Origin: a virus
Virus record (IMG/VR): IMGVR_UViG_3300032093_000017
Reading direction: 5' to 3' (one strand)
Length of the DNA: 64,000 nucleotides
Position numbers and translations under genes: made by a program. Below, in pieces: positions 1 through 40,915 of the stretch. The notes beneath the pieces are model-generated. The model saw nothing but the letters and a program-made list of their open reading frames with translations. It did no database searches and was not told the origin of the DNA. Positions within the stretch are counted from its first letter, which is position 1; each line of letters starts with the position of its first letter.

Positions 1-174
1 ATGACTGCTGCTCAACGGATGGAAAAGCAATTCTTCATTCAAATGATTCAACTTGTGAATGAAGTGCAAGGTAAGCAGAAACTTCCTTCTCAAGTTAATT
101 CTTCTCGTAAGTCTGCTTGGTGTAAGAAAGTTTCTAATCCCAAGCAAAAGAAAGATGCACTTGCTCGCATCTAG
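1..174 (+). CDS. small hypothetical protein (57 aa; may begin upstream of window)
   Basis: ATG at 1, open to TAG 172-174 (MTAAQRMEKQFF...DALARI); not in ORF track; co-oriented with neighbouring small genes. Confidence 0.6.
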   Translation: MTAAQRMEKQFFIQMIQLVNEVQGKQKLPSQVNSSRKSAWCKKVSNPKQKKDALARI

Positions 175-213
175 TTCTTAATTCTTTCATCTGTCCCACA
201 CAAACAACAAACA

Positions 214-378
214 ATGCTGATCAAAACTGTTTTCGATGTTCAAACCAAGCAAGCAGGTTATGCTATTTGTGATCCTGCCACTGAACGTTGTGGTTTTGTG
301 ACTTATAGCATCATCAATGCTATTAAAGCAGGGCAATGTAAAACCTTCGCACAAGTTCAACAACTCATCAATGCCTGA
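214..378 (+). CDS. small hypothetical protein (54 aa)
   Basis: ATG 214 after A/C-rich leader, MLIKTVFDVQ...QQLINA, TGA 376-378 next to the following ATG at 380. Confidence 0.6.
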   Translation: MLIKTVFDVQTKQAGYAICDPATERCGFVTYSIINAIKAGQCKTFAQVQQLINA

Positions 379-379
379 A

Positions 380-538
380 ATGAATCAAATGTATGAAGTT
401 ACTTATCAGGTGCCTTACAACGATTGTGAATGGAGAAGTCAATACTTTAATACTCTACAAGAAGCACAATCAATGGTAGAGTTTTATAGGTCTTGTGGAT
501 CTCCTGCTAAACTGATTGAACGTAAAGTAAGTAACTGA
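380..538 (+). CDS. small hypothetical protein (MNQMYEVTYQVPY...)
   Basis: Track ORF 317..538; start moved to ATG 380 because 317-378 overlaps the upstream gene. Confidence 0.65.
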   Translation: MNQMYEVTYQVPYNDCEWRSQYFNTLQEAQSMVEFYRSCGSPAKLIERKVSN

Positions 539-539
539 A

Positions 540-779
540 ATGACTCAAACTCTCACTGAAACCATCTACTCTGATGCTCTGTTATTTCTGACTCGATACT
601 TCAATCAGTTTGATGAATGTCAGTTGCAAGAACACGATGATTTGACTATTCAAGACATTGTTGATGTTCTTGGTTATGCAAGTTTCGAGGAGCATTATCA
701 TTCTGATGTAGCATATATTTCTGATATTCAGACACTCAATAAACTTCGTAATGAAATTCGCAATCGGTTCTATCAATGA
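540..779 (+). CDS. hypothetical protein (79 aa)
   Basis: Tightly packed ORF; ATGA overlap with next gene. Confidence 0.7.
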   Translation: MTQTLTETIYSDALLFLTRYFNQFDECQLQEHDDLTIQDIVDVLGYASFEEHYHSDVAYISDIQTLNKLRNEIRNRFYQ

Positions 780-931
780 CTGAACTCATCAATCGAACTC
801 ATATGCTTATCGAGGCACTTGAGTATTATATTCAAGACCTCAAAAAGAATAATTGCACTGAAGCATCTATTCAAGCATACACAACTCTTCTCAAAGAGAT
901 TGATGTTGACAACTACTCAGTCATTGATTAA
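776..931 (+). CDS. small hypothetical protein (51 aa)
   Basis: ATGA-coupled start, MTELINRTHML...YSVID, TAA 929-931; not in ORF track. Confidence 0.6.
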   Translation: MTELINRTHMLIEALEYYIQDLKKNNCTEASIQAYTTLLKEIDVDNYSVID

Positions 932-938
932 AACAAAG

Positions 939-1037
939 ATGAAACGTAAAGAAAAACTTGAACTACTATCTAAAGCACAAGATGGTAATGAACTTCTTCT
1001 AATCGCACAAGCAATTATTAACTCTCAAACCAAATGA
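939..1037 (+). CDS. very small hypothetical protein (32 aa)
   Basis: 3' part of track ORF 819..1037; ATG 939 follows the previous stop; ATGA overlap with next gene. Confidence 0.5.
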   Translation: MKRKEKLELLSKAQDGNELLLIAQAIINSQTK

Positions 1038-1228
1038 TTATTCTTCAAAAAGAAAACCACGGTTGTGTTTATACAATTGATCCTGATACTCAAGAACTCT
1101 TCTATGCCCCCATTCATACAAACAACACTGTAAATCTTTCTGAGTTTGCACCTGTTGATCTATCAAGTGTAGATGATGAATATGATGTAATTACGATTCA
1201 AAAAGAACTGATTAACCTAAACAAATAG
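1034..1228 (+). CDS. hypothetical protein (64 aa)
   Basis: Track ORF, translationally coupled to upstream ORF. Confidence 0.65.
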   Translation: MIILQKENHGCVYTIDPDTQELFYAPIHTNNTVNLSEFAPVDLSSVDDEYDVITIQKELINLNK

Positions 1229-1235
1229 TAATACA

Positions 1236-1391
1236 ATGAATGAAACGTTTGTAAGGTTGAGTGAAGAACAAATCAATCTGATTATGTTCTGTCTAGAGCA
1301 AATGGAATGTGATTTCAATGAGACTGAACAATCATTATGCGAAGCAATCATTGACTCTTTCACCACTGCTCTAGTAGAGATAAACACTTAA
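1236..1391 (+). CDS. small acidic hypothetical protein (51 aa)
   Basis: MNETFVRLSEEQ...VEINT, TAA 1389-1391; last gene before the non-coding locus. Confidence 0.6.
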   Translation: MNETFVRLSEEQINLIMFCLEQMECDFNETEQSLCEAIIDSFTTALVEINT

Positions 1392-1528
1392 TCATAAGAT
1401 GAAATAATCATTTATAACGATAAAATGTTTTAATTGATAATTAAATTAAATGTATTAAAAAACATATGTTAGTGTTTTGTGTTGATATAATGATAGTGTT
1501 ATAATAGTCTTTATATCCTCTTTATACT

Positions 1529-1585
1529 CTTATAAATGCCTCTAGTTCTTGTCTTTAGACACTTATAAATGCCTCTAGTTCTTGT
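1529..1585. repeat. direct repeat CTTATAAATGCCTCTAGTTCTTGT x2
   Basis: 24-bp identical copies at 1529 and 1562. Confidence 0.9.
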
Positions 1586-1598
1586 TGTCTAGGCCCGC

Positions 1599-1627
1599 AT
1601 TATACCATAAGACCCAAAAAAAGTCAA
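1599..1627 (-). promoter_or_regulatory. sigma70-type promoter, leftward
   Basis: Minus strand TTGACT (1627-1622) - 17 bp - TATAAT (1604-1599) with extended -10 TGG. Confidence 0.75.
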
Positions 1628-1865
1628 GGGCATTACAGACACTCCTAGGGGTGGCACAAGACATATAGACAATGAAACTCCTGAGACTCACACATCTTAT
1701 GAGTCTTGGGAGTATTTTGCTAGTTACTCGTAAGACTCATAGGTCTCAAACCACTGCAGTAACTGGCACATCGTATCGTGAGTCTCACTGATTCTGCGAT
1801 AGACTTATAGGGTCGGGAGGGGAGGGAATATTATAAACTCCCATAACTGATAAGAAATACGCACC

Positions 1866-2042
1866 TGTGGAAAAATAGTTTTCCACAGGTTTCATTCATT
1901 TCCTATAGGGGAAAGTAATGATTTCCCACAGATAGTTTTCCACAAGTTTATGATGATTTGTAGTGTTTGCAAGGGTTTATAAGAATTGCCCTGTGGAAAA
2001 AGTCTTATAGTTTTCCACAGGTTCGTTATATCTTGTGGAAAA
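1866..2042. promoter_or_regulatory. cluster of cyanobacterial-type DnaA boxes (TTTTCCACA)
   Basis: Perfect 9-mers at 1866(-), 1879(+), 1936(+), 1992(-), 2011(+), 2034(-); one-mismatch copy at 1922. Confidence 0.7.
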
Positions 2043-2165
2043 CTATTCGTGTTAGAATCTCATTCGTCCTGAGAGTTCGTTATACATAAGAGTTCGTTAT
2101 AATCATTCGTTGTGCTTATAGTATTATAATATATTCGTCTTATAGTATAATAATATAATAGCAAC

Positions 2166-2411
2166 GTTATGTTTGAGACCCCCCATAAGGTTTGCTATTT
2201 CAATCAGACAGTGCTATACTATTCGTTGTACACAGTTTCTGACATAAACTGATGTCGTCCTCTGAGTATCATAAACTCTCGGAGGAGTTCGTTATGCAAC
2301 CCCCCATAAGGTTTGTTATTCTTATTGACCAAGACTACATAATTCGTGTTGCACAGTTCGTGTTATAAACTGATGTCCTCCTTTCGTTATATCTAACCCC
2401 CCATAAGGTTT
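2166..2411. repeat. degenerate ~121-bp tandem repeat with conserved core ACCCCCCATAAGGTTT
   Basis: 16-bp core at 2178, 2299, 2396; second block ATAAACTGATGTC at 2244 and 2365. Confidence 0.85.
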
Positions 2412-2690
2412 CGTATTAGAATTAAACAGTAATGAATATAAACTATTCGTGATTGTTCGTTTATTATAATTAAACAGCACTGTTTGACAGTTATATTTTG
2501 TGTTGTTGTATTCTTATACCTAACCGATGCCCCCTTATATAAAATCAATGGGTCCTTCAAGGCTACACCGAACCGAAAACGAGAGAGTAATTGTCTTTCA
2601 AATAAAAAAATTTTTCCAAAAAATTTTTCCAAAAAAGTTGAGGGCACAAGAACAAAAAATGATATATAAGTTTAGAATTTAATCAAAAAA

Positions 2691-2849
2691 ATGACAATGA
2701 GATTAGAAATTGATGATTATGAAAAGGATCTTTTAATTGATACAATTCAGCATAGATTAGACACTGATAAAATCTTAGTGATTAACAATAGTCTGAAAGA
2801 AGAACTTGAAGATCTTCTAAGGAAAGTGGAAGAAGATGAATACGTATAA
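2691..2849 (+). CDS. small hypothetical protein (52 aa)
   Basis: MTMRLEIDDYEKDLL...EDEYV; not in ORF track. Confidence 0.6.
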   Translation: MTMRLEIDDYEKDLLIDTIQHRLDTDKILVINNSLKEELEDLLRKVEEDEYV

Positions 2850-3006
2850 TATTTCAGTAAATGGAAATGAAATATTAAGTCAAGTGCCGCAGAATGATTT
2901 ACAGGAAAATCTGAAACTTATCAGAGGACTTGTATGGACATCTGGGGGAAATGATGGGGATATTACAGTATCTCTAAATAAGAATGAAAACCATTGCAAT
3001 GAATGA
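2836..3006 (+). CDS. small hypothetical protein (56 aa)
   Basis: MNTYNISVNGNEIL...; overlaps upstream stop; not in ORF track. Confidence 0.55.
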   Translation: MNTYNISVNGNEILSQVPQNDLQENLKLIRGLVWTSGGNDGDITVSLNKNENHCNE

Positions 3007-3022
3007 TTTGTGGTGGTAGAAT
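2994..3022 (+). promoter_or_regulatory. sigma70-type promoter
   Basis: TTGCAA-17-TAGAAT with extended -10 TG, upstream of ATG 3058. Confidence 0.6.
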
Positions 3023-3057
3023 ACTAAAGAACAGATTATTTTTCGCAATTATTTTTT

Positions 3058-3807
3058 ATGGCTAAAGGATTTACGGTAAAAGCAAAACTTCCGACAGGAC
3101 CTGTGGAAGGAGAGTTTAATTTAGAAGCAGCAAAAGAAATGATCCGAGGCAAATCAATTGTCTTTTGTTTGCCTGGACGAGGAGTATCTTATCTGTATCT
3201 GAAGAATTTTGTTCAATTATGTTTTGACCTTGTTCAGAACGGAGCAAGTATTCAGATTTCACAAGACTACAGTTCAATGGTGAACTTTGCACGATGCAAA
3301 TGTCTTGGAGCAAATGTTCTCAGAGGACCCAAGCAGATTCCTTGGGATGGAAAACTACAGTATGATTATCAACTCTGGATTGACAGTGATATTGTCTTTG
3401 ATACTGAGAAGTTCTATCGTCTTGTAGCAATGGACAAAGAGATTGCTGCTGGATGGTACTGCACTGAAGATGGTCACACCACATCGGTTGCCCATTGGTT
3501 ACAGGAAGATGATTTCAGAAGCAATGGTGGTGTGATGAACCACGAGACACTGGAGACCATTCAGAAACGTCGTAAACCATTTACAGTGGATTACACAGGT
3601 TTCGGATGGGTTTTGATTAAGAAAGGTGTATTTGAGAATCTTGAGTATCCTTGGTTTGCTCCGAAGATGCAGGTCTTTGAATCTGGTGAAGTTCAAGATA
3701 TGTGTGGAGAGGATGTTTCATTCTGTCTTGATGCAAAAGAGGCAGGATATGAGATCTGGTGCGATCCTCAAATTCGTGTTGGTCACGAAAAGACACGAAT
3801 CATCTGA
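3058..3807 (+). CDS. GT-A-fold glycosyltransferase-like protein, conserved in cyanomyoviruses
   Basis: LWIDSDIVF (DxD), GFGWVLIKKGVF, GEDVSFC and C-terminal VGH motifs. Confidence 0.7.
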   Translation: MAKGFTVKAKLPTGPVEGEFNLEAAKEMIRGKSIVFCLPGRGVSYLYLKNFVQLCFDLVQNGASIQISQDYSSMVNFARCKCLGANVLRGPKQIPWDGKLQYDYQLWIDSDIVFDTEKFYRLVAMDKEIAAGWYCTEDGHTTSVAHWLQEDDFRSNGGVMNHETLETIQKRRKPFTVDYTGFGWVLIKKGVFENLEYPWFAPKMQVFESGEVQDMCGEDVSFCLDAKEAGYEIWCDPQIRVGHEKTRII

Positions 3808-3855
3808 TAAGTGTCTAGAAGGTATTTCTTGACCTTCTTTGAAACGTTATGATAG

Positions 3856-3897
3856 AATGTCTCTATAAGGTTTGTATCGTCTTATAGAGACATTTTT
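3856..3897 (+). terminator. 14-bp stem hairpin followed by T-run, putative intrinsic terminator
   Basis: AATGTCTCTATAAG (3856-3869) / CTTATAGAGACATT (3881-3894), with a T-run at 3893-3897. Confidence 0.5.
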
Positions 3898-3956
3898 ATT
3901 GGCTTGAGAGACTTTATAAAAACCCCCTTATAAAAACCGTTAGATGGAGAACTAAA

Positions 3957-4094
3957 ATGGCACAAAAGAGTCGGAAGGATATGAAGATTGAGAGTATTCC
4001 GAAGAATACTCGACAAGGTGAAGGTAGAAATACTAAATATGCTGCTACGAGTCGCAATGGGGCACGTAAGAAGTACCGAGGTCAAGGACGGTAA
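3957..4094 (+). CDS. small basic protein (45 aa) ending KKYRGQGR
   Basis: GGAG SD upstream, MAQKSRKDMK...RKKYRGQGR; missed by ORF track. Confidence 0.75.
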   Translation: MAQKSRKDMKIESIPKNTRQGEGRNTKYAATSRNGARKKYRGQGR

Positions 4095-4096
4095 AT

Positions 4097-4735
4097 ATGG
4101 CTTATTTAAACCATAGTCTTCCAGATTGGTCCTGTTATATTCGTAATGAATTTCTTTTTAATCACAAGAAAGGTCACGGTGAAGTAACTAAATGTGATGT
4201 TCATTGTGTTGCTAGTATTGAAAAAAGAGTTCCTTTATTTGAGGCATTCCTTGAGAATGGCGTGAATTGGACTCGTAGACCTCTTCACGCATTTTGTTGG
4301 AAACCAGATGCAGAAATAGAACCTTTAGAGGATCTTATGTACTGGGACTGCTTTTCACCGTATGTTGATGTTCAAAAACGTGCCCGTCTTGCTGGATTGC
4401 AAGCAGAATTGATTCGTCCTGATGGAAAAAAAGTGATTGGGAGATATATGTTTACCCTTGATTGGTCATGGGAAAATAAAGGAGTCACTGATCTTAATTT
4501 TTCAGAGACTCCTGAACATAAATGTGCTCATTTATTCAAGGTGGAAACTGGAAATTACTATGCATATCCAAACAATCGCATTATTTGGTATGATAATGCC
4601 TGGACTTTCAATAGAATTGACAAAAATCCAGGATATGAAATTGATTTGACAGTATATTCGGTTGAAAATAAAAGAAAAATCGAAACATCTGATCATTACA
4701 TGTACGAAATTACAAATTTAAATCAAAATAAATAA
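4097..4735 (+). CDS. conserved phage hypothetical protein
   Basis: 212-aa ORF with WDCFS, YMFTLDW, EHKCAH, YPNNRI motifs that I recognise from aquatic phages. Confidence 0.8.
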   Translation: MAYLNHSLPDWSCYIRNEFLFNHKKGHGEVTKCDVHCVASIEKRVPLFEAFLENGVNWTRRPLHAFCWKPDAEIEPLEDLMYWDCFSPYVDVQKRARLAGLQAELIRPDGKKVIGRYMFTLDWSWENKGVTDLNFSETPEHKCAHLFKVETGNYYAYPNNRIIWYDNAWTFNRIDKNPGYEIDLTVYSVENKRKIETSDHYMYEITNLNQNK

Positions 4736-4756
4736 ATTTTTACTAAAGATATTGAG

Positions 4757-5098
4757 TTGAAACAGTTTTCGATGGGCAATCACCTTCTTTTGGAGGTTTA
4801 TGATATAGAACACAATCTTCTGAATGATGGTATTTCTCTTCAGGGGGTGATGGAACGTGGAATTGAACGTGCTGGAATGACTATTTTAAATATTTTTCAG
4901 CACTGTTTCTATCCTCAAGGAGTTACGATTGTAATTGCTCTTTCGGAAAGTCATGTTTCGTGTCATACATGGCCGGAAAGAGGTTGTATTGCCATAGATG
5001 TATATACTTGTGGTGAAGGAAATCCAAAATTAGTTGCACTAGAATTGTTGAAGTATTTTAATTCGGATAATTATAAACTTCGTCAGTTGGATCGTTAA
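4757..5098 (+). CDS. speD: S-adenosylmethionine decarboxylase proenzyme (start may be ATG 4772)
   Basis: HxFxPQGVT...LSESHVSCHTWPE...DVYTCG; E-S autocleavage site. Confidence 0.9.
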   Translation: MKQFSMGNHLLLEVYDIEHNLLNDGISLQGVMERGIERAGMTILNIFQHCFYPQGVTIVIALSESHVSCHTWPERGCIAIDVYTCGEGNPKLVALELLKYFNSDNYKLRQLDR

Positions 5099-5159
5099 AT
5101 AATAATAGAGATAGCAACCTCTTTAAAAGTTCCGGTTTTACTAAAAACAGGAGTTGCAA

Positions 5160-5402
5160 ATGTCTTTTTATCAAATTGATAGAAATAAAGATTATATGAG
5201 AGAAATGTGGGGAACTACAAGTCTCATTACTGATTACAATCAACAAAAAAATACAAAAAAAGTACTTCAGGAGATTATGCACGATCATGCACCAAAGCAT
5301 GATTTTAAAAAACAAACTGAATTACACGAAAAGATCAGAAATGATGAAGATTATGATGATTGGAATTATGGTACAGAACCAGTCTATGGAAAAATTGTCT
5401 GA
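5160..5402 (+). CDS. conserved hypothetical protein
   Basis: AGGAG SD then ATG 5160 within track ORF 5154..5402. Confidence 0.75.
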   Translation: MSFYQIDRNKDYMREMWGTTSLITDYNQQKNTKKVLQEIMHDHAPKHDFKKQTELHEKIRNDEDYDDWNYGTEPVYGKIV

Positions 5403-5439
5403 AAAGTCTTATAGATATATAAAAGACAATTAATCTTAG

Positions 5440-5841
5440 ATGCCAATTAGCATTTCAAGATCTTTTAAAGACATTAGTTTGTCTTTTTCACGTCATCCTG
5501 TTACAAATGATATTTTAATTTTAAAAAATGAGGATGCAATTAAAAGATCTGTTCTCAATTTAGTTCAAACTCAAATTAGTGAGAGGTTCTTCAATAACTT
5601 ATTGGGAACCTCTGTGAATTCTTCTTTGTTTGAACTTGCAACACAAGAAATAGAGATTATTTTAAAAAGAGAAATTGAAACTGTATTAAATAATTTTGAA
5701 CCAAGAATTAGATTAAATAATATAGAGGTAGAAGTAATTGATGATTATAATGAATTGACCGTTAAAATTGTATATGACATTGTTGGACTACCATTACCAC
5801 TACAGAATATAGAGTTTATTTTACAACCAACTAGAATATAA
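5440..5841 (+). CDS. gp25: baseplate wedge subunit gp25
   Basis: FKDISLSF..HPVT, ERFFN, FEPRI motifs; precedes gp6. Confidence 0.9.
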   Translation: MPISISRSFKDISLSFSRHPVTNDILILKNEDAIKRSVLNLVQTQISERFFNNLLGTSVNSSLFELATQEIEIILKREIETVLNNFEPRIRLNNIEVEVIDDYNELTVKIVYDIVGLPLPLQNIEFILQPTRI

Positions 5842-7733
5842 TGTCCTTCAATAACTTTACAAACTTAGATTTTAATGATTTAAGAACTCAAATTAAGAGT
5901 TATTTGAGAGCAAATGCAAATTTTACAGATTTTGATTTTGAAGGATCTAATTTTTCTGTTTTAATTGATATTTTAGCATATAATTCTTACATTACTGCAT
6001 TTAACACCAATATGGTGGTGAATGAATCCTTTATTGATAGTGCAACTCTTCGGGAGAATGTTGTTTCTCTTGCACGTAATATCGGATATGTACCAAGATC
6101 AAAAAGTGCATCAAAGGGAAAAATAAGTTTTTCCGTAAGCACACCTAGAGATTCTAGTGGTAATTTAATTTCAAAAACAGTTACTTTAAAGGCAGGAGTA
6201 GTTGCCTTAGGTGCTGTGGAGGGGGGAAATTATATTTTTTCAATTCCAGAAGATAAAACAGTTGTTGTTGGAAATGATGGATTTGCAAATTTCACAGATG
6301 TTGAAATTTATGAAGGAACATTTTTAACTAAATCATTTACAATTGACGATTCGCAACCAAATCAAAGATTTTTAATTCCAAATGCAAGTGTGGATACATC
6401 TACACTTCGTGTGAAAGTTACAAATGTTATAAATGAAAAATATGAGTTATATAATAATATTTTTAAAGTAGACAAAACTTCAAAATTATTTTTAATACAA
6501 GAAGTTAGTGATGAGAAATATGAAATTGTATTTGGTGATAATATTTTAGGAAAAAGACCAATTAGTGGAAGTACCGTTCTTGTTTCCTATATTGTAACAA
6601 ATGGAAAGGAAGGTGATGGTTGCTTTAACTTTACATTTTCAGGAATTTTAGTTGATAATAATCAAACAGCAATCACAAGTGGAATTTCTTTAATTACCAC
6701 AACTCAAGTATCAGAAAATGGTGACGATATTGAGTCTATTGATTCAATTAAATATCTTGGACCAAGAGTCTATGCCTCCCAGTATCGTGCAGTTACTGCA
6801 AATGACTATAAAGGATTAATCCCATCTATTTTTCCAAATGTAGATACTGTTACTGCTTATGGTGGAGAAGAACTAGACCCACCAGAATATGGAAAAGTTT
6901 ACATTTCAATAAAACCAAGAAATGGTAAATTTTTATCTCAAATCTCAAAAAATGAGATTAAAAAGCAACTAAAGCAATATTCAATTGCAGGAATACAACC
7001 AGAGATTATTGATTTGAAATATTTGTATGTTGAATTGGAATCCTCTGTATATTATGACAAAAGTTCAACTTCAAGTGTTACTGATTTACAATCTAGAGTT
7101 ATTAATTCATTAAAGAGTTATGCAAAATCAACAGAATTGAACAGTTTTGGTGGAAGATTTAAGTATAGTAAAGTTTCAACGTTAATTGATAGCACAAGCA
7201 CTGCAGTCACTTCAAATATCACAAAAGTAAAAATAAGAAGAGATTTACAACCAGCACTCAATACTCTTGCAAATTATGAACTTTGTTTTGGAAATCAATT
7301 TCATATTCAAAAGTTAATTGATGGGAAAGGATATAACATAAAATCTACAGGATTTACTGTCAAAAATATAGCAGATAAATTATATTTAAGTGATACACCA
7401 AGGACAGATGAAGTTGGAACTATCTTTTTCTTTAGACTTGTGAATGGAGTTCCATTCATTGTAGTAAATAATGCAGGAGAAGTTAATTACAAAAAAGGAG
7501 AAATATTATTAAATCCAGTGATTATAACTTCTTCGGATAATTCTTCGGGAATACAAATTCAAGCAATTCCGGAATCAAATGATATCATTTCTTTGAAAGA
7601 TATATACTTAGAGATGGATACTACTACACTTAAAGTAACTATGCTAGAGGATGTGATAACTTCTGGAGAAAATACCTCTGCAACAGAATATCCAGTCACA
7701 TCTAGTTACAACAACGGAAATTATATAAGATAA
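5841..7733 (+). CDS. gp6: baseplate wedge subunit gp6
   Basis: DFDFEGSNFSVLIDILAYN, RENVVSLARNIGY, RAVTANDY motifs. Confidence 0.92.
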   Translation: MSFNNFTNLDFNDLRTQIKSYLRANANFTDFDFEGSNFSVLIDILAYNSYITAFNTNMVVNESFIDSATLRENVVSLARNIGYVPRSKSASKGKISFSVSTPRDSSGNLISKTVTLKAGVVALGAVEGGNYIFSIPEDKTVVVGNDGFANFTDVEIYEGTFLTKSFTIDDSQPNQRFLIPNASVDTSTLRVKVTNVINEKYELYNNIFKVDKTSKLFLIQEVSDEKYEIVFGDNILGKRPISGSTVLVSYIVTNGKEGDGCFNFTFSGILVDNNQTAITSGISLITTTQVSENGDDIESIDSIKYLGPRVYASQYRAVTANDYKGLIPSIFPNVDTVTAYGGEELDPPEYGKVYISIKPRNGKFLSQISKNEIKKQLKQYSIAGIQPEIIDLKYLYVELESSVYYDKSSTSSVTDLQSRVINSLKSYAKSTELNSFGGRFKYSKVSTLIDSTSTAVTSNITKVKIRRDLQPALNTLANYELCFGNQFHIQKLIDGKGYNIKSTGFTVKNIADKLYLSDTPRTDEVGTIFFFRLVNGVPFIVVNNAGEVNYKKGEILLNPVIITSSDNSSGIQIQAIPESNDIISLKDIYLEMDTTTLKVTMLEDVITSGENTSATEYPVTSSYNNGNYIR

Positions 7734-7734
7734 A

Positions 7735-10700
7735 ATGTCAGAAGTTAAAAGAGTAAAAATCCAATCTTTTATTGAATCACAAATTCCAGAATTTTTAAAT
7801 TCTGAATCTCCTCTGTTCAAAGAATTTTTAGAGCAATATTATATTTCACAGGAACATCAGACTGGTGTTACTGATTTAACAGTTAATTTACAAAATTATA
7901 AAAGCATTGATAATTTTAATAACGAAACATTTTACAGCACAGTTGGAATTTGTACTCTCACTTCTGATGTTGTGTCTTTTGATGATACGATTCTCGTCAA
8001 TCATACAATTGGATTTCCCCAAAAATATGGTTTATTGAAAATTGATAATGAAATTATTACATACACGGGAATTACAACAAATTCTTTTACTGGTTGTATT
8101 CGTGGTTTTTGTGGATTAGATAAAGATAATACAAATGATTTATTTAAATTTTCTTCAACAGATACTTCAGACCATACAAAAAATTCACAGGTAATTAATT
8201 TAAATATTTTATTTTTTCAGGAATTATTTAAAAAATTCAAAACACAATTTTTACCTGGATTTGAAGATAGACAATTTGCAACTGGAATTAATTTACAAAC
8301 AATATTATCAAGAGCAAAGGATTTTTATACTACAAAAGGAACTGATACTTCATTTAAAATTCTTTTTAGTGTTCTTTTTAATGAGTCAATATCTGTCATT
8401 AAACCACAAGACTATTTAATTTCTCCATCATCAAATGATTATTTGATAACTAAAAATATTTTAGTTGAACAAATAATTAGAGATTCCACATTTAAAGTTT
8501 CGGATTCTACTTTAAGAAAAGAATTAAAAGGAAAAACAATATTTCAATCAACTTTAGATAATAAAACAGCAAGTGCATCAATTTATAATGTTGAATATAG
8601 ACCAATAAATTCTGGAGATTTTATATACAATTCGGTTGGATTTGACGAAACTGCACAAAAAAATTATATCACCAAGGATTTTTATGAAATTTCTTTAGAT
8701 CGTACATCATTTATATTAAACTTTGAATCTACTAAGAAAACAAAAGTTTTAGAAAATACATTCAAAAATTCAACTTCTATTTTAGTTGATTCTACAATTG
8801 GATTTAAAAAATCTGGAACTTTATTGATTAAACCAAAAAATCTTTCAAATCCAATTGTTTTAACATACACCGATAAAACAATTAATGAATTTTTAAATGT
8901 AAGTGGTCTAACAATTGATTTAGATTATGGTGCAGAAATAATTGAAGAAAATTTCTTATACACATATTTGGATGACGGATCAAAAATTGAATTCAGATTG
9001 ATTAACATTATTAATGATATTGATTATAAAGAAACATCAAATTTAAGAGTAAATGATAAAATACAACTATTTTCATTTGGTATTGATTTAAATGACCGAA
9101 TTGAATTCAATCAATGGATTTATAATGTACCAACAACGCATCTCATAAAATCAGTAGATACAGGTAGAATATATTTGTATGAAAACATTAATTTGTCTAT
9201 TGGAGACCAAGTAGTATTATCTAATCCAGATTTAGTAGATGTACAAAATGTTACAGTAAGTATTGAAGGATTTGGTTTTAATGCATTTGGACATTTTATT
9301 GATACAAAAGGTCCAAATGCAAGCACATTCAAAAAAACACATTTAACAAAAATCATTAATAAAGTTTCTAGTGATCAAAATTATTTTCCAAATGTTTCTA
9401 TTTTTCCATCTTCAATTCAGAATACCTACATTGATTATAATAGTGAAAATTTTTATGTTGCTTCTTCTGGACTCCCCAATTATGAAATTTATGCAACCGA
9501 TAGAAAAACATTTGTTTCTGCAAATGTAAGTACGGGTTCAACTACAATTTTAAATTGTTCTAATCACAATTTATTTACTGGTGAAAAAATATATTATATT
9601 CAAAAATCTGGAAATGTTGGAATTAGAACTTCTGCATATTTTGTAACAAAAGTAAATGACAATCAAGTAAAATTGTCATATAGTAATTCTGATTTATTCT
9701 CAAAAACTTATGTCCCAATAAAAAATAATGTTGATGGTGATTATTTTGTTAAATTTGATTTTCAAAATAAATCATTAGGCAATCAAAAATTATTTAAAAA
9801 ATTTAATTTAGTTAAAAAATTAAATAAATTTTTTACAGATAATGATAAAAGTACTATAGATAAAGCCACTGGGATTTTAATCAATGGTGTTGAAATATTT
9901 TCACCGACTCTTTATGATGAAAATATTTACTACGGAAAAATTAATTCGGTCATTGTTGAGAGTTCAGGAAAGGATTATGATGTTATTAATTTTTCTGGTT
10001 TAGAAGTTGATGATATTTATGGCACTGGTGCATCAGTAGAGGCAAATCTATCTGGAAGTCTGGATAAAGTAATATTATTAAATCCTGGAATTGGATATCC
10101 AAGAAAACCAAAAATTACTTTAGTTGGAGGAAATGGATCAGGAGCAGTTTTAGAGTCAAACTTAGTAAAAACTAAAATCGTATCAAAATTTAACCCAAGT
10201 TCCGCCATCAGCATTGGATCAAGCACAATACAGTTTTTGACTAATCATAATTTTGATGACGGAGAAGAAGTATCTTATATTAATGATTCTAATGGAAATG
10301 TATCACCATTAATAAACAATTCAAATTATTTCGTAGGTATAGTAAGTGCAACACAACTGAAATTATATAAAACTAAGGAAAATGCATTAGGAAAAAATAG
10401 TCCTATTACTTTCACTGGGATTGGTTCAGGAATACACTCTTTAAAAACCTTAAATTCAAAAAATACAATCACAAAAATTTATGTAAAAGAAAAAGGAAAA
10501 AATTATTCAAATAGATCGGTCAAAATACCAAGTGATTTATCATCAAATAACCAAAATAATGGAATAAACACATTTGATGATTATATTTTTGCAAAAGAAC
10601 ACAATTTTAAAAATGAAGATGTAGTAATATACTCCACAAGTGGCACTTCAATATCTGGATTATCAACTCAAACAAATTATTATGTTACTGTAATTGATAG

Positions 10701-13700
10701 CAATAGATTTAAATTATCAGTTTTTGGATCTTCTGAAAATCAAAGAATTAATTATGATAATAAAAAATATGTTAGGTTTTCTTCTGTAGGGGTAGGAACT
10801 CACATTTTCTCATATCCACCAATTCAAATTGAAATTGAACACGTTTCTGGAATTGCAACTTCACCATCGGCAGAACCGATAGTTCTTGGATCAATTGAAA
10901 ATGTTTTTATCACAAATGATGGAAAAAATTATGGTTCTCCTGATACATTAAATTATCACAGAAAACCTAGAGTTGGAATTTTCAGTATTCTTTCTGAATG
11001 TATTCTAAAACCAGTTTTGTTGAATGGTTCTATTGTTGATGTTCAAATATTAAACTCTGGTAGAGGATACGGGAAAGACATTGATATAAAGATATTTGGC
11101 AAAGGAAAATATGCAGAATTATATCCAATTGTAACAAATGGAAAAATAACAAGTATTAATATTTTGAATTCTGGTATAGGTTATGATGAAAAGACTACGT
11201 TACTTATTCAAAGAAGAGGTTTAGGTGCAAGATTTAGTGCCAATATTTTTGAATGGAAAATTAATCAAGTAGAAAAAAACAAAAAAATTATTTCACCCAA
11301 TGATGGGGGTTTAATTGTACCTAGTAAAAACAACGAAACAACACTGGAATTTATTCATTTTTATCCACCAAAAAATCTAAGATTTAAAGTTAATAATTTT
11401 ATTGATAAAGATAATAATGAAATCTTACCAGACAATAATCAAAATCCATATAAAATTTTAGGGTGGGCTTACGATGGAAATCCAATTTTTGGACCATATG
11501 GAAAAGTTAATGGTGAGTCAAAATTATTACAATCAAGCTATAAACTAAAAAATTCTGGTGAAATCGGAATTTCAATTTCAAATCAACTGAGACCCAATTT
11601 TGGATCAGGATTTTTTGTACAAGATTATCTTTATGATAGGGGAACTGGAGATTTAGATGAATATAATGGAATGTTTATTAATGACAAAAATTTACCAAAT
11701 ATTAACTATGGTTACTTTTCAACGATTTCTAATGATGAAAAAGAACCACAGTATCCATATACAGTACCTTTGAATTTTAAAGATTTACCAATAGAAGAAA
11801 ATTTTAATCCGTTATTTAATCAAGATTTTAATTTTGAATCCTTAGATATTGTTAGAAATATTGGACCTTATTATTTGAATTCAAGTAATTCTTCTTATGA
11901 TTTAATTGATAAAATTGATTCAAAATATAAACAAGAATTTATTGTTAAAGATATAAGTTCTTCTGGTATAACTTCAATTTCTATTTTTGAACCAGGTGAT
12001 AATTATAAAGTAGGAGAATTAATTAAATTTGACAGTAAATCTTCTGGTGGAAATTCAGTTTCTGCTGAGATTTCTAGGATAAAAGGAAAAAACGTATCAA
12101 ATGTACAGGTTGGAATTTTAACATTTACTGATGTAAATTTCATCACAAAGGGTGTTTCAATAAAAGGAATTACAAATCAACCACATAATCTAATTAGTGA
12201 TGATGAAATCATTATATCCAATTTGTCATCAAGTGAATTTAATCATTTGGAAGGAACTAAAAAAATATATGTTTTCCAAAACAGTGCAGGATTAGTAGAA
12301 AACCTAGAGAGTCAATCAGTTACTGGAGTGACAACATACGTTAAAGTTACCGATGTATCTGGATTTGAAGTTGATAATTTTATAGGAATAGGAACAGAAG
12401 TTTTAAAAATAATCAACATTTCTTCAACGGAATCAAAATTATACGTAAATAGATTTGATAATTATTCTGGAATACACAGTGTAGGATTTGCAACTGTAAC
12501 TTTGTTGCCAAATACATTTACATTTTCAACTCAAAAATATGAAGATGATATAGTTGAAAATAAAACTGTTTATTTCAATCCAAGCAATACGATTGGAATT
12601 GGAACAACTGGTTCAATTTATTATAACATAGTCGGATTTCAAACTGCTTTCGGAACTTTAAATGCAACAGGTCTCAGCACAGTTGGTGTAAATACTACTT
12701 TATTGGAAATTGGTGATTATGTATTTGGGACTAATATTCAAAATAACACAACTATAACATCAATTGGGATTGGTTCAATTACAATAACACCAGACCACAC
12801 TCTTGGTGGTGGGATATCAACAAATTTATTGACATTTTCAAGGAAAATATACGATAAAACTGTTCCAAGTCGTTCAATATACATACCAAGTCACAAATTT
12901 TATACTGGACAATCTATTACTTATAATGTTGGGTTGGTTGGAAATGGCATTGTGGTTTCTGAAACTGGGACAGGAACAACATTTAGATTAGCAAACAACC
13001 AAACAGTATATACAGTTAATTTAGGAAAAGATTATGTTGGTCTATCTACTTTAGGATTTACTACTAGTACTGGAATTGGAACGACACAAAATTCTTTATA
13101 TTTTAGAAGTCCTATTGAAAATATTGGTTTGGCTCATTCTTTGACAACTCAATATGAAAAAATTAAGGGGAAAGTAAATAATTATTCAGTAGTCGTTTCA
13201 ACTTCTCAAACACACGGTTTGCAAACAGGTGACAATATTAAATTTAATTTTGAACAAAGTAACACAAATACTATAAAATTAAGATACGACAAAGTAATTA
13301 GAAAAATAACTACAGAACTTATTGATTTTGACCCCTTATCGGGAATAAACACACTCACAAATGAAATTAATATTCCTGGAAATAATTTAAAAACAGGAGA
13401 TAAGATTGTTTATTATACTAATGACCAAACTTCTGTTGGTGGATTATCTACAAATGCTGTGTATTATGTTTTAAAACAAAATCCAGATAAAATTAAGTTA
13501 TCAAGTTATCAATATGATGCTAATGTTGGAATTGCAATTACTTTGACTTCTGTTGGTGCAGGATTAACTCACAATTTTGCTCTCGTCAATCCACCAATCA
13601 ATATTTTAAATGGAAATATAATATCCTTTGATTTAACTGATGGTAGTCTTTCAAATATGGATTTGAGACTATATGCAGATTCCAATTTTAGTAAAGAAAT

Positions 13701-16125
13701 AGAAACATTCAAATATCTTAATTATGACACTAATAGAGTCAAAGAATTGAATACCAAGTTGTCTTTGCCAACTGAAATCTATTATAATTTAATTTCACTT
13801 TCTAAAAATGAAGATGAAAAAAATCAATTGTCTTCAGATAAAGAAGTAAATGGATTCAATAAAATTAAAATAATCCCAAATAATATTAACACTTACCATT
13901 CTATAATAAAAACAGGAAATTCGCAGTTTAAATTTAATTTAAACGTTATTCCAGAACCACTCACATTTATTTCTGGATTATCAACATCATACTATGATAC
14001 TGATTCAAAAAATGTTGTTGGTCCAATATCAAATCTTAGAGTTAATTTTGGAGGAAGAGGATATAAGAAAATTCCAAAAATTTCTTCAATTACTACAACA
14101 TCAGGAAAAGGTGCAGCATTAGAAGCAAAATCTTCTACTATTGGAAAAATAGAAAATTTAGAAAGAGTAAAAGATGGATTTGATTATCCAAGTGATACTA
14201 CACTAAAACCTTTTTTAAGTGTTCCTGCTGTTGCTCAAATAGGAGATATTTCAAGAATAGAATATGTTGGTATTATAACTGGAGGAAATGGATATAATAC
14301 TGCACCTACTTTAAAAGTTTTGGGGAATAATAAAATTAAATTATCGGCCAAATTGCAAAGTGGTAGTGTAATTGGTGTTGATATTGTTGAGAATACTAAT
14401 GATTTGATAACTCCATTGAGAATTGTACCTATAAGAAATTCCAATGGTTATGAAATTGATAGTGTTGTTGCCTCCAATGATGGTTCTACTGTAACTTTAG
14501 AACTTCTTAATAATTCAGAATTATTTCCACTAATTACAACTGGTTATGGAACAACTGATGTTGTATTTCCATTTACTGAAGGTGATGAAATTTTCATAGA
14601 AAACTGCAGGCAAGTGGATAGAACTAAAGATAATATAAACTCCAAAGATTATAGTTATAGATTTTTTACGGTAACTTCAGTGAGTTCTCAAAATTTTACT
14701 GTCACTTTTAGTATGACTGGTGTTAAAGATTCATTGAATTTAAATCAAAATAATGGAGAATCAAATTATGAAAATGGATTTGGATATGGTTATGTAGTGA
14801 ATAAAAAAGATATGGCCGTGTTTGAAATGAATTTGGTTGATGATTTGAGTTATATTTCTGGAGAAAATGTTTTTGGATATGATAATAGAGGAAATTCAGT
14901 ATTTTCTGCAAAAGTTGCAGAAAATGGTTGGGATAATGAAATTAACCAATTGAGAATGGTAGATGCAAAAGGAGAACTAGAAGTTGGAAATAAATTAAAA
15001 GGTGAAAAATCACTACTAAATGGAACAGTAAAAGACGTAAATAAATTTAATTTAAAAGCAAATCTAGGTGTCTCAAGAGATAAAGTAAATGAAAGCAAAA
15101 ATCAAAGTGGATTTTTGAATGATTATTTACAAAGACTCTCAGATAATTTTTATTATCAAAGATTTTCTTATGCAATTAAGAGTCAGATTTCTTATGATAA
15201 GTGGAAAGAACCAATCAAATCTCTAATTCATCCATCAGGATTTAAAGAATTTTCCGATTTAGATATTGTGAGTATTCCATCTTCAAATGTAAAAGTTGGA
15301 ATTAGTAGTAATGATTTAAATCTTAGTGTTTTGATGGATAATATCCAGTCACTTTACACTAAAAATAATTTTACATTAGTTTCAGAAGATGATGATAATT
15401 TATTTGAAGATGGATCAATTGAAAGAATTAATGTAGGTGCAGAAGAAGGAAATATTGCTGGAGTTGGAACTTTTGGTCCTATCTTTGGGGTTCCCCTCAA
15501 AGAGTATATTTTAAATAAAACAAATAAAGTTTTATTGATGAATGACATCAGTGATCAGTTTGATGGGTCAAATGATTACATTTCAATAGGAATTACCACA
15601 GCAACATTTAATGCTCTAAATCAATATTATGTTGGAATTTCCACAGAAAATTTAAAAATAGGTGATTATATTGGAAATTCTGAATTTTTAATTCCAGAGG
15701 CAACATTAGTTGATGAAATTGGAATTAACAGTATCAGAATAAATTTACCTCATCGTTTGCAAGTGGGAATTGATACGACTGATGTATCAATTAGAAGAAA
15801 ATTACCTGGAAATAAAGTCGTAGGTAAAACATCATTTGAACTCACATCTGGAATTAGTTCGGAAAAAGTACCATTATATTATCGTGAATTCAATTCTAAT
15901 TCTTCCCAAATTTTGAATTTAGATAATAATATAATCAATCTAAAGAGTCATAATTTCCAAACTGGTCAAAAAATATTTTACAACAGATCTATTATTGATT
16001 CCCAACCAGTTGGATCTGCAACAACTGAAGTTGATAATGCATTTTCATATAATGTTTCTAATAAATTTGATTCAAATACAATTATGAGACTTGATATGAC
16101 TATATTCAAGTTTGATTCAAATTAA
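7735..16125 (+). CDS. giant baseplate wedge initiator gp7-like structural protein (N-terminal part)
   Basis: Between gp6 and gp8; KDFYTTKGT, IHPSGFK motifs; YHYH-like segment (GWAYDGNPIFGPYG...DLDEYNG); repeated HNF.TG and GxGY modules. Confidence 0.75.
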   Translation: MSEVKRVKIQSFIESQIPEFLNSESPLFKEFLEQYYISQEHQTGVTDLTVNLQNYKSIDNFNNETFYSTVGICTLTSDVVSFDDTILVNHTIGFPQKYGLLKIDNEIITYTGITTNSFTGCIRGFCGLDKDNTNDLFKFSSTDTSDHTKNSQVINLNILFFQELFKKFKTQFLPGFEDRQFATGINLQTILSRAKDFYTTKGTDTSFKILFSVLFNESISVIKPQDYLISPSSNDYLITKNILVEQIIRDSTFKVSDSTLRKELKGKTIFQSTLDNKTASASIYNVEYRPINSGDFIYNSVGFDETAQKNYITKDFYEISLDRTSFILNFESTKKTKVLENTFKNSTSILVDSTIGFKKSGTLLIKPKNLSNPIVLTYTDKTINEFLNVSGLTIDLDYGAEIIEENFLYTYLDDGSKIEFRLINIINDIDYKETSNLRVNDKIQLFSFGIDLNDRIEFNQWIYNVPTTHLIKSVDTGRIYLYENINLSIGDQVVLSNPDLVDVQNVTVSIEGFGFNAFGHFIDTKGPNASTFKKTHLTKIINKVSSDQNYFPNVSIFPSSIQNTYIDYNSENFYVASSGLPNYEIYATDRKTFVSANVSTGSTTILNCSNHNLFTGEKIYYIQKSGNVGIRTSAYFVTKVNDNQVKLSYSNSDLFSKTYVPIKNNVDGDYFVKFDFQNKSLGNQKLFKKFNLVKKLNKFFTDNDKSTIDKATGILINGVEIFSPTLYDENIYYGKINSVIVESSGKDYDVINFSGLEVDDIYGTGASVEANLSGSLDKVILLNPGIGYPRKPKITLVGGNGSGAVLESNLVKTKIVSKFNPSSAISIGSSTIQFLTNHNFDDGEEVSYINDSNGNVSPLINNSNYFVGIVSATQLKLYKTKENALGKNSPITFTGIGSGIHSLKTLNSKNTITKIYVKEKGKNYSNRSVKIPSDLSSNNQNNGINTFDDYIFAKEHNFKNEDVVIYSTSGTSISGLSTQTNYYVTVIDSNRFKLSVFGSSENQRINYDNKKYVRFSSVGVGTHIFSYPPIQIEIEHVSGIATSPSAEPIVLGSIENVFITNDGKNYGSPDTLNYHRKPRVGIFSILSECILKPVLLNGSIVDVQILNSGRGYGKDIDIKIFGKGKYAELYPIVTNGKITSINILNSGIGYDEKTTLLIQRRGLGARFSANIFEWKINQVEKNKKIISPNDGGLIVPSKNNETTLEFIHFYPPKNLRFKVNNFIDKDNNEILPDNNQNPYKILGWAYDGNPIFGPYGKVNGESKLLQSSYKLKNSGEIGISISNQLRPNFGSGFFVQDYLYDRGTGDLDEYNGMFINDKNLPNINYGYFSTISNDEKEPQYPYTVPLNFKDLPIEENFNPLFNQDFNFESLDIVRNIGPYYLNSSNSSYDLIDKIDSKYKQEFIVKDISSSGITSISIFEPGDNYKVGELIKFDSKSSGGNSVSAEISRIKGKNVSNVQVGILTFTDVNFITKGVSIKGITNQPHNLISDDEIIISNLSSSEFNHLEGTKKIYVFQNSAGLVENLESQSVTGVTTYVKVTDVSGFEVDNFIGIGTEVLKIINISSTESKLYVNRFDNYSGIHSVGFATVTLLPNTFTFSTQKYEDDIVENKTVYFNPSNTIGIGTTGSIYYNIVGFQTAFGTLNATGLSTVGVNTTLLEIGDYVFGTNIQNNTTITSIGIGSITITPDHTLGGGISTNLLTFSRKIYDKTVPSRSIYIPSHKFYTGQSITYNVGLVGNGIVVSETGTGTTFRLANNQTVYTVNLGKDYVGLSTLGFTTSTGIGTTQNSLYFRSPIENIGLAHSLTTQYEKIKGKVNNYSVVVSTSQTHGLQTGDNIKFNFEQSNTNTIKLRYDKVIRKITTELIDFDPLSGINTLTNEINIPGNNLKTGDKIVYYTNDQTSVGGLSTNAVYYVLKQNPDKIKLSSYQYDANVGIAITLTSVGAGLTHNFALVNPPINILNGNIISFDLTDGSLSNMDLRLYADSNFSKEIETFKYLNYDTNRVKELNTKLSLPTEIYYNLISLSKNEDEKNQLSSDKEVNGFNKIKIIPNNINTYHSIIKTGNSQFKFNLNVIPEPLTFISGLSTSYYDTDSKNVVGPISNLRVNFGGRGYKKIPKISSITTTSGKGAALEAKSSTIGKIENLERVKDGFDYPSDTTLKPFLSVPAVAQIGDISRIEYVGIITGGNGYNTAPTLKVLGNNKIKLSAKLQSGSVIGVDIVENTNDLITPLRIVPIRNSNGYEIDSVVASNDGSTVTLELLNNSELFPLITTGYGTTDVVFPFTEGDEIFIENCRQVDRTKDNINSKDYSYRFFTVTSVSSQNFTVTFSMTGVKDSLNLNQNNGESNYENGFGYGYVVNKKDMAVFEMNLVDDLSYISGENVFGYDNRGNSVFSAKVAENGWDNEINQLRMVDAKGELEVGNKLKGEKSLLNGTVKDVNKFNLKANLGVSRDKVNESKNQSGFLNDYLQRLSDNFYYQRFSYAIKSQISYDKWKEPIKSLIHPSGFKEFSDLDIVSIPSSNVKVGISSNDLNLSVLMDNIQSLYTKNNFTLVSEDDDNLFEDGSIERINVGAEEGNIAGVGTFGPIFGVPLKEYILNKTNKVLLMNDISDQFDGSNDYISIGITTATFNALNQYYVGISTENLKIGDYIGNSEFLIPEATLVDEIGINSIRINLPHRLQVGIDTTDVSIRRKLPGNKVVGKTSFELTSGISSEKVPLYYREFNSNSSQILNLDNNIINLKSHNFQTGQKIFYNRSIIDSQPVGSATTEVDNAFSYNVSNKFDSNTIMRLDMTIFKFDSN

Positions 16126-16157: not shown

Positions 16158-17891
16158 ATGGCAAGACTAGGGATATTTACTGGAACTACACCAAACGATG
16201 GAACTGGAGATACTTTATCTCAAGGTGCAGTAAAAGTTAATAGTAATTTTAGTGAAATTTATACTGCAATTGGTGATGGTACTAACATCACCAATACGAT
16301 TTCTTTTGCGAACACCTCTACTAATGTAGTGGGGGGAATTGCTTCAGTAACAAGTTTAAATGTTTCTGGTGGAATTTCTACTGTTGGTTTTTTAACTGCA
16401 ACTAACATAAATGTTGTTGGAATTGTAACTGCTTCTAGTTTTACAGGAAACTTAACAGGTACAGCAACTACGGCTAATAACGTAAGTTCTACTATTAACA
16501 TAAACACCACTGGTATTGTAACTGCTTCTAGTTTTACAGGAAACTTAACAGGAACAGCAACTACCGCATCTAATTTACCTTCAAATATAAACATCAATAC
16601 ATCAGGTATTATAACTGCTTCAAGTTTTGTAGGTAACTTAACAGGTACAGCAACTACAGCAGTTGGTTTAGGTACAACTTCAAGCATTAACACTACAGGA
16701 ATTATAACTGCTTCAAGTTTTGTAGGTAACTTAACAGGTACAGCAACTACAGCAGTTGGTTTAGGTACAACTTCAAGCATTAACACTACAGGAATTATAA
16801 CTGCTTCAAGTTTTGTAGGTAACTTAACAGGTACAGCAACTACAGCAACTACAGCAGTTGGTTTAGGTACAACTTCAAGCATTAACACTACAGGAATTAT
16901 AACTGCTTCAAGTTTTGTAGGTAACTTAACAGGTACAGCAACTACAGCAACTACAGCAGTTGGTTTAGGTACAACTTCAAGCATTAACACTACAGGAATT
17001 ATAACTGCTTCAAGTTTTGTTGGAACACAGTCAATAACAATTGATGGGTCAACATTAATTGGAACAAATATACTTTCACTTTCTGGTGTTTCTAGTGACT
17101 TTACAACAGTTGGTTCTCAAACTTTTACCGTTCCAGCAGGAGTTACAAAAATATCAGCAATCGTAATTGCTGGTGGTGGAGGTGGTGGAGCAGGACAAGG
17201 TGGAAATGGAGGTTCTGGGGGTGGAGGGGGTGGTTTAAGATATATTAACGACCATCCAGTTGCACCAGGTCAAGTATTAAGCATTTCAGTAGGAAATGGT
17301 GGAAATGGTGGAAATGGTGGAAATGGCAGTGCTGGTGGCACTTCTGAAATCACTGGGATTGTAACTGCTTATGGTGGATCTGGAGGATCAACATCTCAAG
17401 GAGGGTCTGCTTTGGGTGGAACTGGAAGTACAATTTCGGGAAATATTGGAGGATCTAATGGTGGCAATGGTGGAGGTGGAACTTTAACAACTGGTGGTGG
17501 TGGAGGTGGTGCAGGAGGATATACTGGAAATGGAGGAGATGGTTCACCTGCAACTGGAAATAATGGAACTGGAGGTTCTGGAGCAGGTGGAGGAGGTCTC
17601 GGGTCTGGTGGAGGTGGAGTTGGATTGCTTGGATTATCATCAAGTGGAACTGGGGCATCAGTTCAGGGAGGAGGTGGTGGATCTGGTGGTTCTAATGGAA
17701 CAACTGGGTCAGATGGTCAAAATGGAAGTCCTGGAGGAAACTATGGAGCAGGTGGTGGAGGAGGTGAAAATGGTAGTGCCACTCTTGGAGGAAATGGTGC
17801 TCAAGGTGCAGTAAGGATATTATGGACTCCAAATTCCAAGTTCTCAAGACTCTATCCATCACATCAAGTTGGAAACACTATAAATCAATAA
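16158..17891 (+). CDS. fibre-like structural protein: gp9/gp10-type N-terminus, Thr-rich repeats, Gly-rich C-terminal domain
   Basis: GTTPNDGTGDTL...KVNSNFSEIY N-terminus; 31-34 aa repeats; FTVPAGVT..IAGGGGG...GAQGAVRI Gly-rich domain. Confidence 0.7.
   Translation: MARLGIFTGTTPNDGTGDTLSQGAVKVNSNFSEIYTAIGDGTNITNTISFANTSTNVVGGIASVTSLNVSGGISTVGFLTATNINVVGIVTASSFTGNLTGTATTANNVSSTININTTGIVTASSFTGNLTGTATTASNLPSNININTSGIITASSFVGNLTGTATTAVGLGTTSSINTTGIITASSFVGNLTGTATTAVGLGTTSSINTTGIITASSFVGNLTGTATTATTAVGLGTTSSINTTGIITASSFVGNLTGTATTATTAVGLGTTSSINTTGIITASSFVGTQSITIDGSTLIGTNILSLSGVSSDFTTVGSQTFTVPAGVTKISAIVIAGGGGGGAGQGGNGGSGGGGGGLRYINDHPVAPGQVLSISVGNGGNGGNGGNGSAGGTSEITGIVTAYGGSGGSTSQGGSALGGTGSTISGNIGGSNGGNGGGGTLTTGGGGGGAGGYTGNGGDGSPATGNNGTGGSGAGGGGLGSGGGGVGLLGLSSSGTGASVQGGGGGSGGSNGTTGSDGQNGSPGGNYGAGGGGGENGSATLGGNGAQGAVRILWTPNSKFSRLYPSHQVGNTINQ
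16419..17024 (+). repeat. 93/102-bp coding tandem repeat (6 full units plus partial)
   Basis: Units start at 16419, 16512, 16605, 16698, 16791, 16893, 16995 (GIITASSFVGNLTGTATT...); later units near-identical in DNA. Confidence 0.95.
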
Positions 17892-17906
17892 AGGTATTAA
17901 ACAAAA

Positions 17907-40907: not shown

Positions 40908-40915
40908 TATAAATA
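40908..40915 (+). promoter_or_regulatory. T4 late promoter (gp55-dependent)
   Basis: Perfect TATAAATA upstream of gp18. Confidence 0.8.

Follow-up and report, generated by a model that had tools for sequence, protein, structure and literature searches.

In the iteron-bearing theta origins of P1 (oriR), pSC101, and RK2 (oriV), DnaA boxes are accessory elements; in Escherichia coli, the datA locus soaks up DnaA, which is also a known transcription factor. Among the origins of phage T4, oriE adjoins the baseplate genes. T4-like cyanophages are among the most abundant viruses of the sea and of lakes, and to our knowledge, where and how their DNA replication starts is not known; no published description of DnaA boxes in cyanophages was found in the literature searched. 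In T4 itself, oriF and oriG each consist of a promoter and a downstream AT-rich unwinding element (PMC3016281), and oriE combines an early promoter with evenly spaced short direct repeats, to which no role has been assigned and which are conserved syntenically in related phages (Kreuzer and Brister 2010, PMC3016281).

The locus analyzed here occupies positions 1392-2690 of a 64,000-nucleotide stretch of viral DNA, the whole of which is referred to as the window. The closest DNA matches of the window are myoviruses of Prochlorococcus and Synechococcus, and it was therefore assigned to a T4-like cyanomyovirus. The large ORFs lie without exception on the + strand, and their products include proteins of the types found in T4-like phages, namely baseplate wedge gp6 (5841-7733), tail sheath, portal, and major head protein; the ORFs on either side of gp6 (5440-5841 and 7735-16125) were taken to be gp25 and gp7 on the basis of synteny with P-SSM2 and S-SSM7. 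The 1.3-kb region itself contains no ORFs and is bordered on both sides by small + strand ORFs, in agreement with the initial annotation, which had placed it beside tiny genes. To the left is a series of such ORFs, and to the right are two tiny ORFs, a glycosyltransferase-like gene (3058-3807), an oxygenase-like gene, and then the gp6 block. Ahead of the baseplate-wedge genes gp25, gp6, and gp7, T4-like cyanophages keep a non-coding control region of modular build, and this is the region described here. As a whole, it shows no DNA similarity to phage isolates at E 1e-5, and positions 1-4200 of the window find no match in G001, the nearest record. The initial annotation interpreted the region as a bidirectional origin with bacterial and T4-style features, located at a GC-skew switch; nearly all the sequence elements on which this interpretation was built are real, the skew switch being the single exception.

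The candidate unwinding element is an AT-rich, easily melted tract (1387-1536, 82% AT), originally delimited at about 1400-1525, which a duplex-stability calculation ranks as the second easiest-melting 150-bp window within the 64 kb (top 0.2%). Two + strand extended -10 motifs, TGATATAAT (1483-1491) and TGTTATAAT (1497-1505), were recognized in the tract by eye and are candidate promoters. Three related loci (L028, L101, and L086) carry one or two extra DnaA boxes directly beside the conserved word AATGTATTAAAAAA of the AT tract, unlike the window, where no box adjoins this word. A leftward promoter of the sigma-70 type, TTGACT-17-TATAAT with a TG extension (1627..1599, - strand, 11/12 match), points into the tract; it is kept in all 10 of the 10 aligned relatives and recurs as a short match in further loci; the promoter call of the initial annotation stands. 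The previously reported 24-bp direct repeat proved to exist in another form, as a 33-bp tandem duplication on the + strand (1519-1551 and 1552-1584; repeat family D4), with copies that are 94% identical and share about 23 nt exactly. The 33-bp unit is present as a single copy in the nearest relatives, L151 and L205, and hence the duplication is strain-specific. Each copy carries the late-promoter-like word TATAAATG, the TATAAATA-type copies of which end in G. Elsewhere in the window, TATAAATA, the T4-type late promoter word, is found at 40908, 49589, and 52409, shortly 5′ of the sheath gene and other late ORFs, a placement consistent with T4-like late transcription.

A promoter that fires into an AT-rich tract is the feature that the locus has in common with T4 oriF and oriG. 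The T4 promoters, however, are MotA-dependent middle promoters, and the T4 origins sit within genes, whereas the promoter here is of the plain sigma-70 type and an R-loop is only putative.

To the right, the region is dominated by a polar array of the word TTCGT (consensus TTCGTTATA; 2022-2460). Fifteen co-oriented words were counted on the + strand in 2020-2470, far above the 0.28 expected, and none on the - strand, in accord with the array proposed at the outset. The left part of the array is built from a 30-bp unit with alternating 13/17-bp spacing, and the last two DnaA boxes are interspersed with the array, to which they are joined at a constant offset, TGTGGAAAA-CTA-TTCGT. In alignments of relatives, the TTCGT columns are 99.5% conserved, compared to 88.7% elsewhere, and the array is retained in relatives with and without boxes. 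It overlaps a second short AT-rich tract (2116-2160; z 2.45 for 60-bp windows, at about 2100-2170) and three + strand repeats of about 100-121 bp (2172-2428, starting at 2172, 2293, and 2390, that is, with spacings of 121 and 97 bp), each of which opens with CCCCCCATAAGGTTT and contains a promoter-like TTGCTA-17-TATACT followed by TTCGT. Both the second AT-rich tract and the repeats of ~121 bp had been noted initially, as had the A/T tracts farther right. The best-conserved non-coding block contains a second leftward promoter-like site, CTGTCA-16-TATAAT (2463-2490, - strand). The A/T tracts form an A6T5CC tandem (2605-2630; repeat family D17) that resembles an UP element and precedes an extended -10 motif, TGATATATA (2660-2668, + strand). 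Both are conserved in relatives, and together (2605-2668) they are the probable early promoter of the small ORFs that start at 2691. In L205, an extra ORF with an HNH-endonuclease-like motif recognized by eye (…HIDGNNRNNHYTNLKWGTHKEN…) lies between the A/T tandem and the early promoter (L205:5907-6807), which suggests a homing-endonuclease insertion. Overall, the region contains several promoter-like sites, on both strands.

An early-type promoter combined with a direct-repeat cluster, in a region that likewise precedes baseplate genes, recalls T4 oriE. The two differ in that T4 has no DnaA boxes and its repeats are 12-nt units, whereas the repeats here are a 5-9-nt word at 13/17-bp alternating spacing; the likeness is one of layout. 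By analogy, the ingredients shared with oriF, oriG, and oriE would be a promoter directed into a meltable tract, polar repeats, and a place before the baseplate genes.

An element without a T4 counterpart is the DnaA-box cassette (1863-2045), with boxes at 1866 (-), 1879 (+), 1922 (+), 1936 (+), 1992 (-), 2011 (+), and 2034 (-). The 64-kb window contains six exact copies of the box TTTTCCACA, all within 1866-2042 (177 bp), and the seventh box, TTTCCCACA at 1922 (+), has one mismatch; the cluster described in the initial annotation is thus confirmed. The first two boxes are inverted relative to each other at a distance of 13 bp, and 56 bp separate a + box from a - box across a conserved spacer. 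A scan of viral contigs for the inverted pair yielded at least 118 loci, 52 of which share the glycosyltransferase-like gene; 0.7-2 kb upstream of it, most of these have 4-12 boxes. The common layout begins with the inverted pair, whose starts are 13 bp apart, and continues with one or two + boxes. A conserved spacer of 47 bp (…GTAGTGTTTGCAAGGGTTTATAAGAATTGCCC) then leads to a - box exactly 56 bp on, and additional boxes follow; box numbers range from 4 to 12 among the relatives. Within the collection of phage isolates, cyanophages alone gave short matches to the cassette (E up to 1, at the level of the boxes); P-SSM2 and S-SSM7 have no boxes at the syntenic place, and Syn30 has only 3. Given the exact, clustered, and conserved boxes, the cassette probably binds host DnaA.

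The flanked box pair is also frequent in cellular, mostly cyanobacterial, genomes. Cyanobacterial oriC clusters have the 9-mer TTTTCCACA and the flanked inverted pair in common with the cassette and are about as dense in boxes, but the similarity stops at the boxes. The locus has neither linkage to dnaA or dnaN nor a skew inflection, and its main AT tract (1387-1536) is not beside the boxes but 330 bp away, the short tract (2116-2160) being 74 bp from the last box. Among 120 cellular loci that carry this box pair, none resembled the cassette beyond the boxes, and the idea that the cassette was copied from a cellular oriC was rejected.

The initial annotation proposed that GC skew switches at the locus and that cumulative skew over the whole genome would reach its minimum near 1.4-2.7 kb. 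Local skew is indeed -0.07 at 1-1391, 0.00 at 1392-2690, and +0.2 to +0.35 rightward, but the stretch with C>G is merely a local dip of about 3 kb. Cumulative skew was calculated for the relative G002, a complete 247-kb contig (rated 100% complete) that is collinear with the window and 81-88% identical over it. In G002, G exceeds C in nearly all 5-kb bins, and cumulative skew rises monotonically from end to end, without an inflection, the homologous locus appearing only as a 3-kb dip. L205 matches the left flank of the window at 99.8% identity, and its skew turns positive again further left. Because the complete relative shows no inflection, the skew part of the earlier reading falls on its own terms, and the patterns in G002 and L205 indicate that the positive skew accompanies coding on one strand only and does not mark replication. 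A GC-skew origin signal was accordingly ruled out.

Comparison with close relatives shows that the DnaA-box block is exchangeable. Positions 1-1223 of the window are 99.8% identical to L205, L218, and L195, and positions 2019-6000 are 98.5% identical to L151, L131, and L145, with the mosaic break at 1863-2019, inside the non-coding region; the window is a recombinant mosaic, and the non-coding region looks like a hot spot of module exchange. In the slot that holds the boxes in the window, both sets of relatives and G002 carry an alternative unit instead, which consists of a TTGCAA-16-TATAGT promoter, a palindrome (TAGTTTTGTCCC…GGGACAAAACTA) that overlaps this promoter, and a conserved 54-aa ORF. 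The cassette types were tallied among distinct versions of loci that had been collected independently of the boxes: 7 versions have the ORF and 0-2 boxes, 7 have 4-8 boxes and lack the ORF, and 1 has neither. The DnaA-box block is an exchangeable cassette, and the box and small-ORF cassettes are mutually exclusive in one slot. Since near-identical strains carry the replacement and the complete 247-kb genome G002 has no box cluster anywhere, the block is dispensable. With respect to oriC-like features, the locus has the consensus box cluster but neither the GC-skew inflection nor retention of the cluster by close relatives.

The 54-aa ORF (MRPQKYKNLG…; L205:5118-5283, L152:10936-11100, and L151:8033-8191) is represented by just 7 protein clusters in a large database. 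Its product has no match in Pfam or PHROG and no sequence or fold match in the PDB, and an AF2 model (pLDDT 84) shows a two-helix hairpin and no strand. A ribbon-helix-helix regulator was considered and rejected given the lack of a family match, of a strand in the model, and of a fold match in the PDB; a DNA-binding role of the protein is a guess. The alternative cassette has the appearance of a transcription unit that regulates itself, in keeping with a transcriptional role of the slot.

The origin proposed in the initial annotation stands in part. Both sets of ingredients are present, the bacterial-type one with dense host-type DnaA boxes and meltable AT tracts and the T4-type one with direct repeats, which T4 oriE also has, and a strong promoter that points into an AT-rich block, and origin-like ingredients are retained in many related viral contigs. 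The skew signal is absent, bidirectionality is unsupported, and the boxes are dispensable. The combination of T4-origin ingredients with iteron-like accessory boxes leads us to favor, tentatively and as a possibility short of even odds, a site of replication initiation that includes the promoter and the TTCGT array and to which the DnaA cassette is an accessory, non-essential input. The strong early promoter (1627..1599) would transcribe into the meltable AT tract, as at the R-loop origins of T4, the polar TTCGT array would act as an iteron-like array of sites, and host DnaA bound to the cassette would be an optional helper or timer that facilitates DNA opening or adjusts initiation to the replication state of the host. 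The most likely role of the cassette would be to recruit host DnaA, which would contribute as an accessory to replication initiation or early transcription. What was observed directly is the anatomy of the region, how well it is conserved, and that the cassette can be exchanged; DnaA binding, transcription, and a replication start are inferred.

The iteron theta origins offer a parallel for such an arrangement, with DnaA boxes, co-oriented direct repeats, and an AT tract occurring together, and their accessory boxes fit the dispensability seen here. They differ from the locus in two respects: the TTCGT repeats are much shorter than iterons of 17-22 bp, and the phage has a T4-type replisome of its own and no linked Rep initiator gene. 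No Rep initiator was found in connection with the array, as the tiny flanking ORFs match no Rep family and the next larger genes are the glycosyltransferase-like and oxygenase-like ones. Overall, an origin role in which the boxes are accessory at most is plausible, and transcriptional control or DnaA titration would fit about equally.

Under transcriptional control, the slot at 1863-2045 would be an operator through which host DnaA gates promoters, such that early transcripts or a non-coding RNA follow the replication or growth state of the host, and sister strains would use a small phage protein with a palindromic operator instead. The exchange itself speaks for this possibility, as the box cassette and the cassette of promoter, palindrome, and ORF exclude each other in one slot, with 7 versions each, and in the latter the palindrome overlaps the promoter; a swap of a self-contained promoter, operator, and small gene fits nearly as well as an initiation site. 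Promoter-like sites are numerous and lie on both strands, and a terminator-like hairpin can form from the inverted pair of boxes. In the window, however, no good promoter overlaps the boxes, the best candidate, TTGCAA-16-TAAACT, matching at only 8/12 positions and being weaker in relatives. Moreover, the 54-aa protein belongs to no recognizable DNA-binding family or fold, and the precise multi-box layout goes beyond what a simple operator needs. We consider this explanation somewhat less likely than the initiation site.

Alternatively, the boxes might serve as a sponge: multiplying phage genomes would titrate host DnaA and shut off host initiation, with no effect in cis on the phage. E. coli datA and DnaA-regulated promoters show the likeness, a high-affinity box cluster that acts without being an origin, and the density and exact consensus of the boxes, as well as their variation from 4 to 12 across relatives, are as expected if the total number counts. 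Titration, however, does not require the conserved orientation, the 13/56-bp spacing, or the inter-box spacer, and the conserved geometry and single genomic slot set the cassette, always found in one control region, apart from a simple sink such as datA. A replacement cassette with a small gene is hardly another sponge, and the sponge appears improbable.

The sequence between the leftward promoter and the DnaA boxes bears on one more explanation. It comprises a conserved hairpin-rich block (1657-1838, + strand; alignments A1 and A3) and a G-quadruplex motif, GGGTCGGGAGGGGAGGG (1810-1826, + strand), the latter noted initially. In the block, AGACTCA/TGAGTCT occurs five times, in alternation, and two mutually exclusive hairpins can form (1677-1713 or 1695-1744); the long hairpin noted before has its arms at 1698-1714 and 1725-1741. 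The G-quadruplex motif was the single instance in the window in a pattern search of both strands, and its fourth G-run is lost in some relatives. The + strand of the block folds at -91.6 kcal/mol (z -7.4, versus -4.2 for the - strand), and across 17 sequences, 93-95% of the cells are paired in the alternative structures, with many G-U pairs that are tolerated on the + strand only. The block may encode a structured RNA on the + strand or else present a series of sites for proteins. An RNA structure is not claimed because covariation in neither alternative structure (each about 94% paired) exceeds that in shuffles. The Rfam search returned no match above gathering (sole hit His_leader, 26 bits versus 49 needed, E 0.21), and a tRNA search found none. 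A non-coding RNA locus, in which a + strand RNA of about 350-400 nt with alternative hairpins would extend from ~1500 as far as the hairpin of the box pair (near 1890) and the DNA motifs would be secondary, draws on the strand asymmetry and the pairing, but it leaves the boxes and the TTCGT array unexplained, the block is missing from L097, L099, and L113, which retain the promoter and boxes, and we regard it as the most improbable of the readings considered here.

The new observations are the identity of the alternative cassette, its mutual exclusivity with the boxes, the failure of the skew signal in a complete relative, and the existence of a complete relative without a box cluster. For the favored initiation site, a broader extension would be that early replication of T4-like cyanophages in general is started or licensed at this locus with host DnaA, with a swappable module (boxes, or the 54-aa protein and palindrome) and the TTCGT array as the constant core, which at present is an unlikely, speculative generalization. 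If true, the conserved perfect sites for the host initiator would represent an unexpected dependence in a lytic phage with its own replisome and would tie phage replication or early transcription to the light-gated cell cycle of the host. The either/or swap of cassettes in near-identical strains provides natural isogenic comparisons, and the question is therefore directly testable.

Two other features of the window were noted outside the control region. In a fibre-like gene, positions 16400-18000 have a GC content of 0.44 and a GC skew of 0.39, and internal repeats there match several places of G002; this is probably a repetitive G-rich fibre domain. At 3829-3905, a promoter-like TTGACC-18-TAGAAT is directly followed by a hairpin with an 11-bp stem (GTCTCTATAAG…CTTATAGAGAC) and a T run, which could specify a very short transcript or a terminator behind the glycosyltransferase-like gene. 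The stem contains CTCTATAAGGTTTG, which resembles the CCCCATAAGGTTTG word of the three repeats at 2172-2428.
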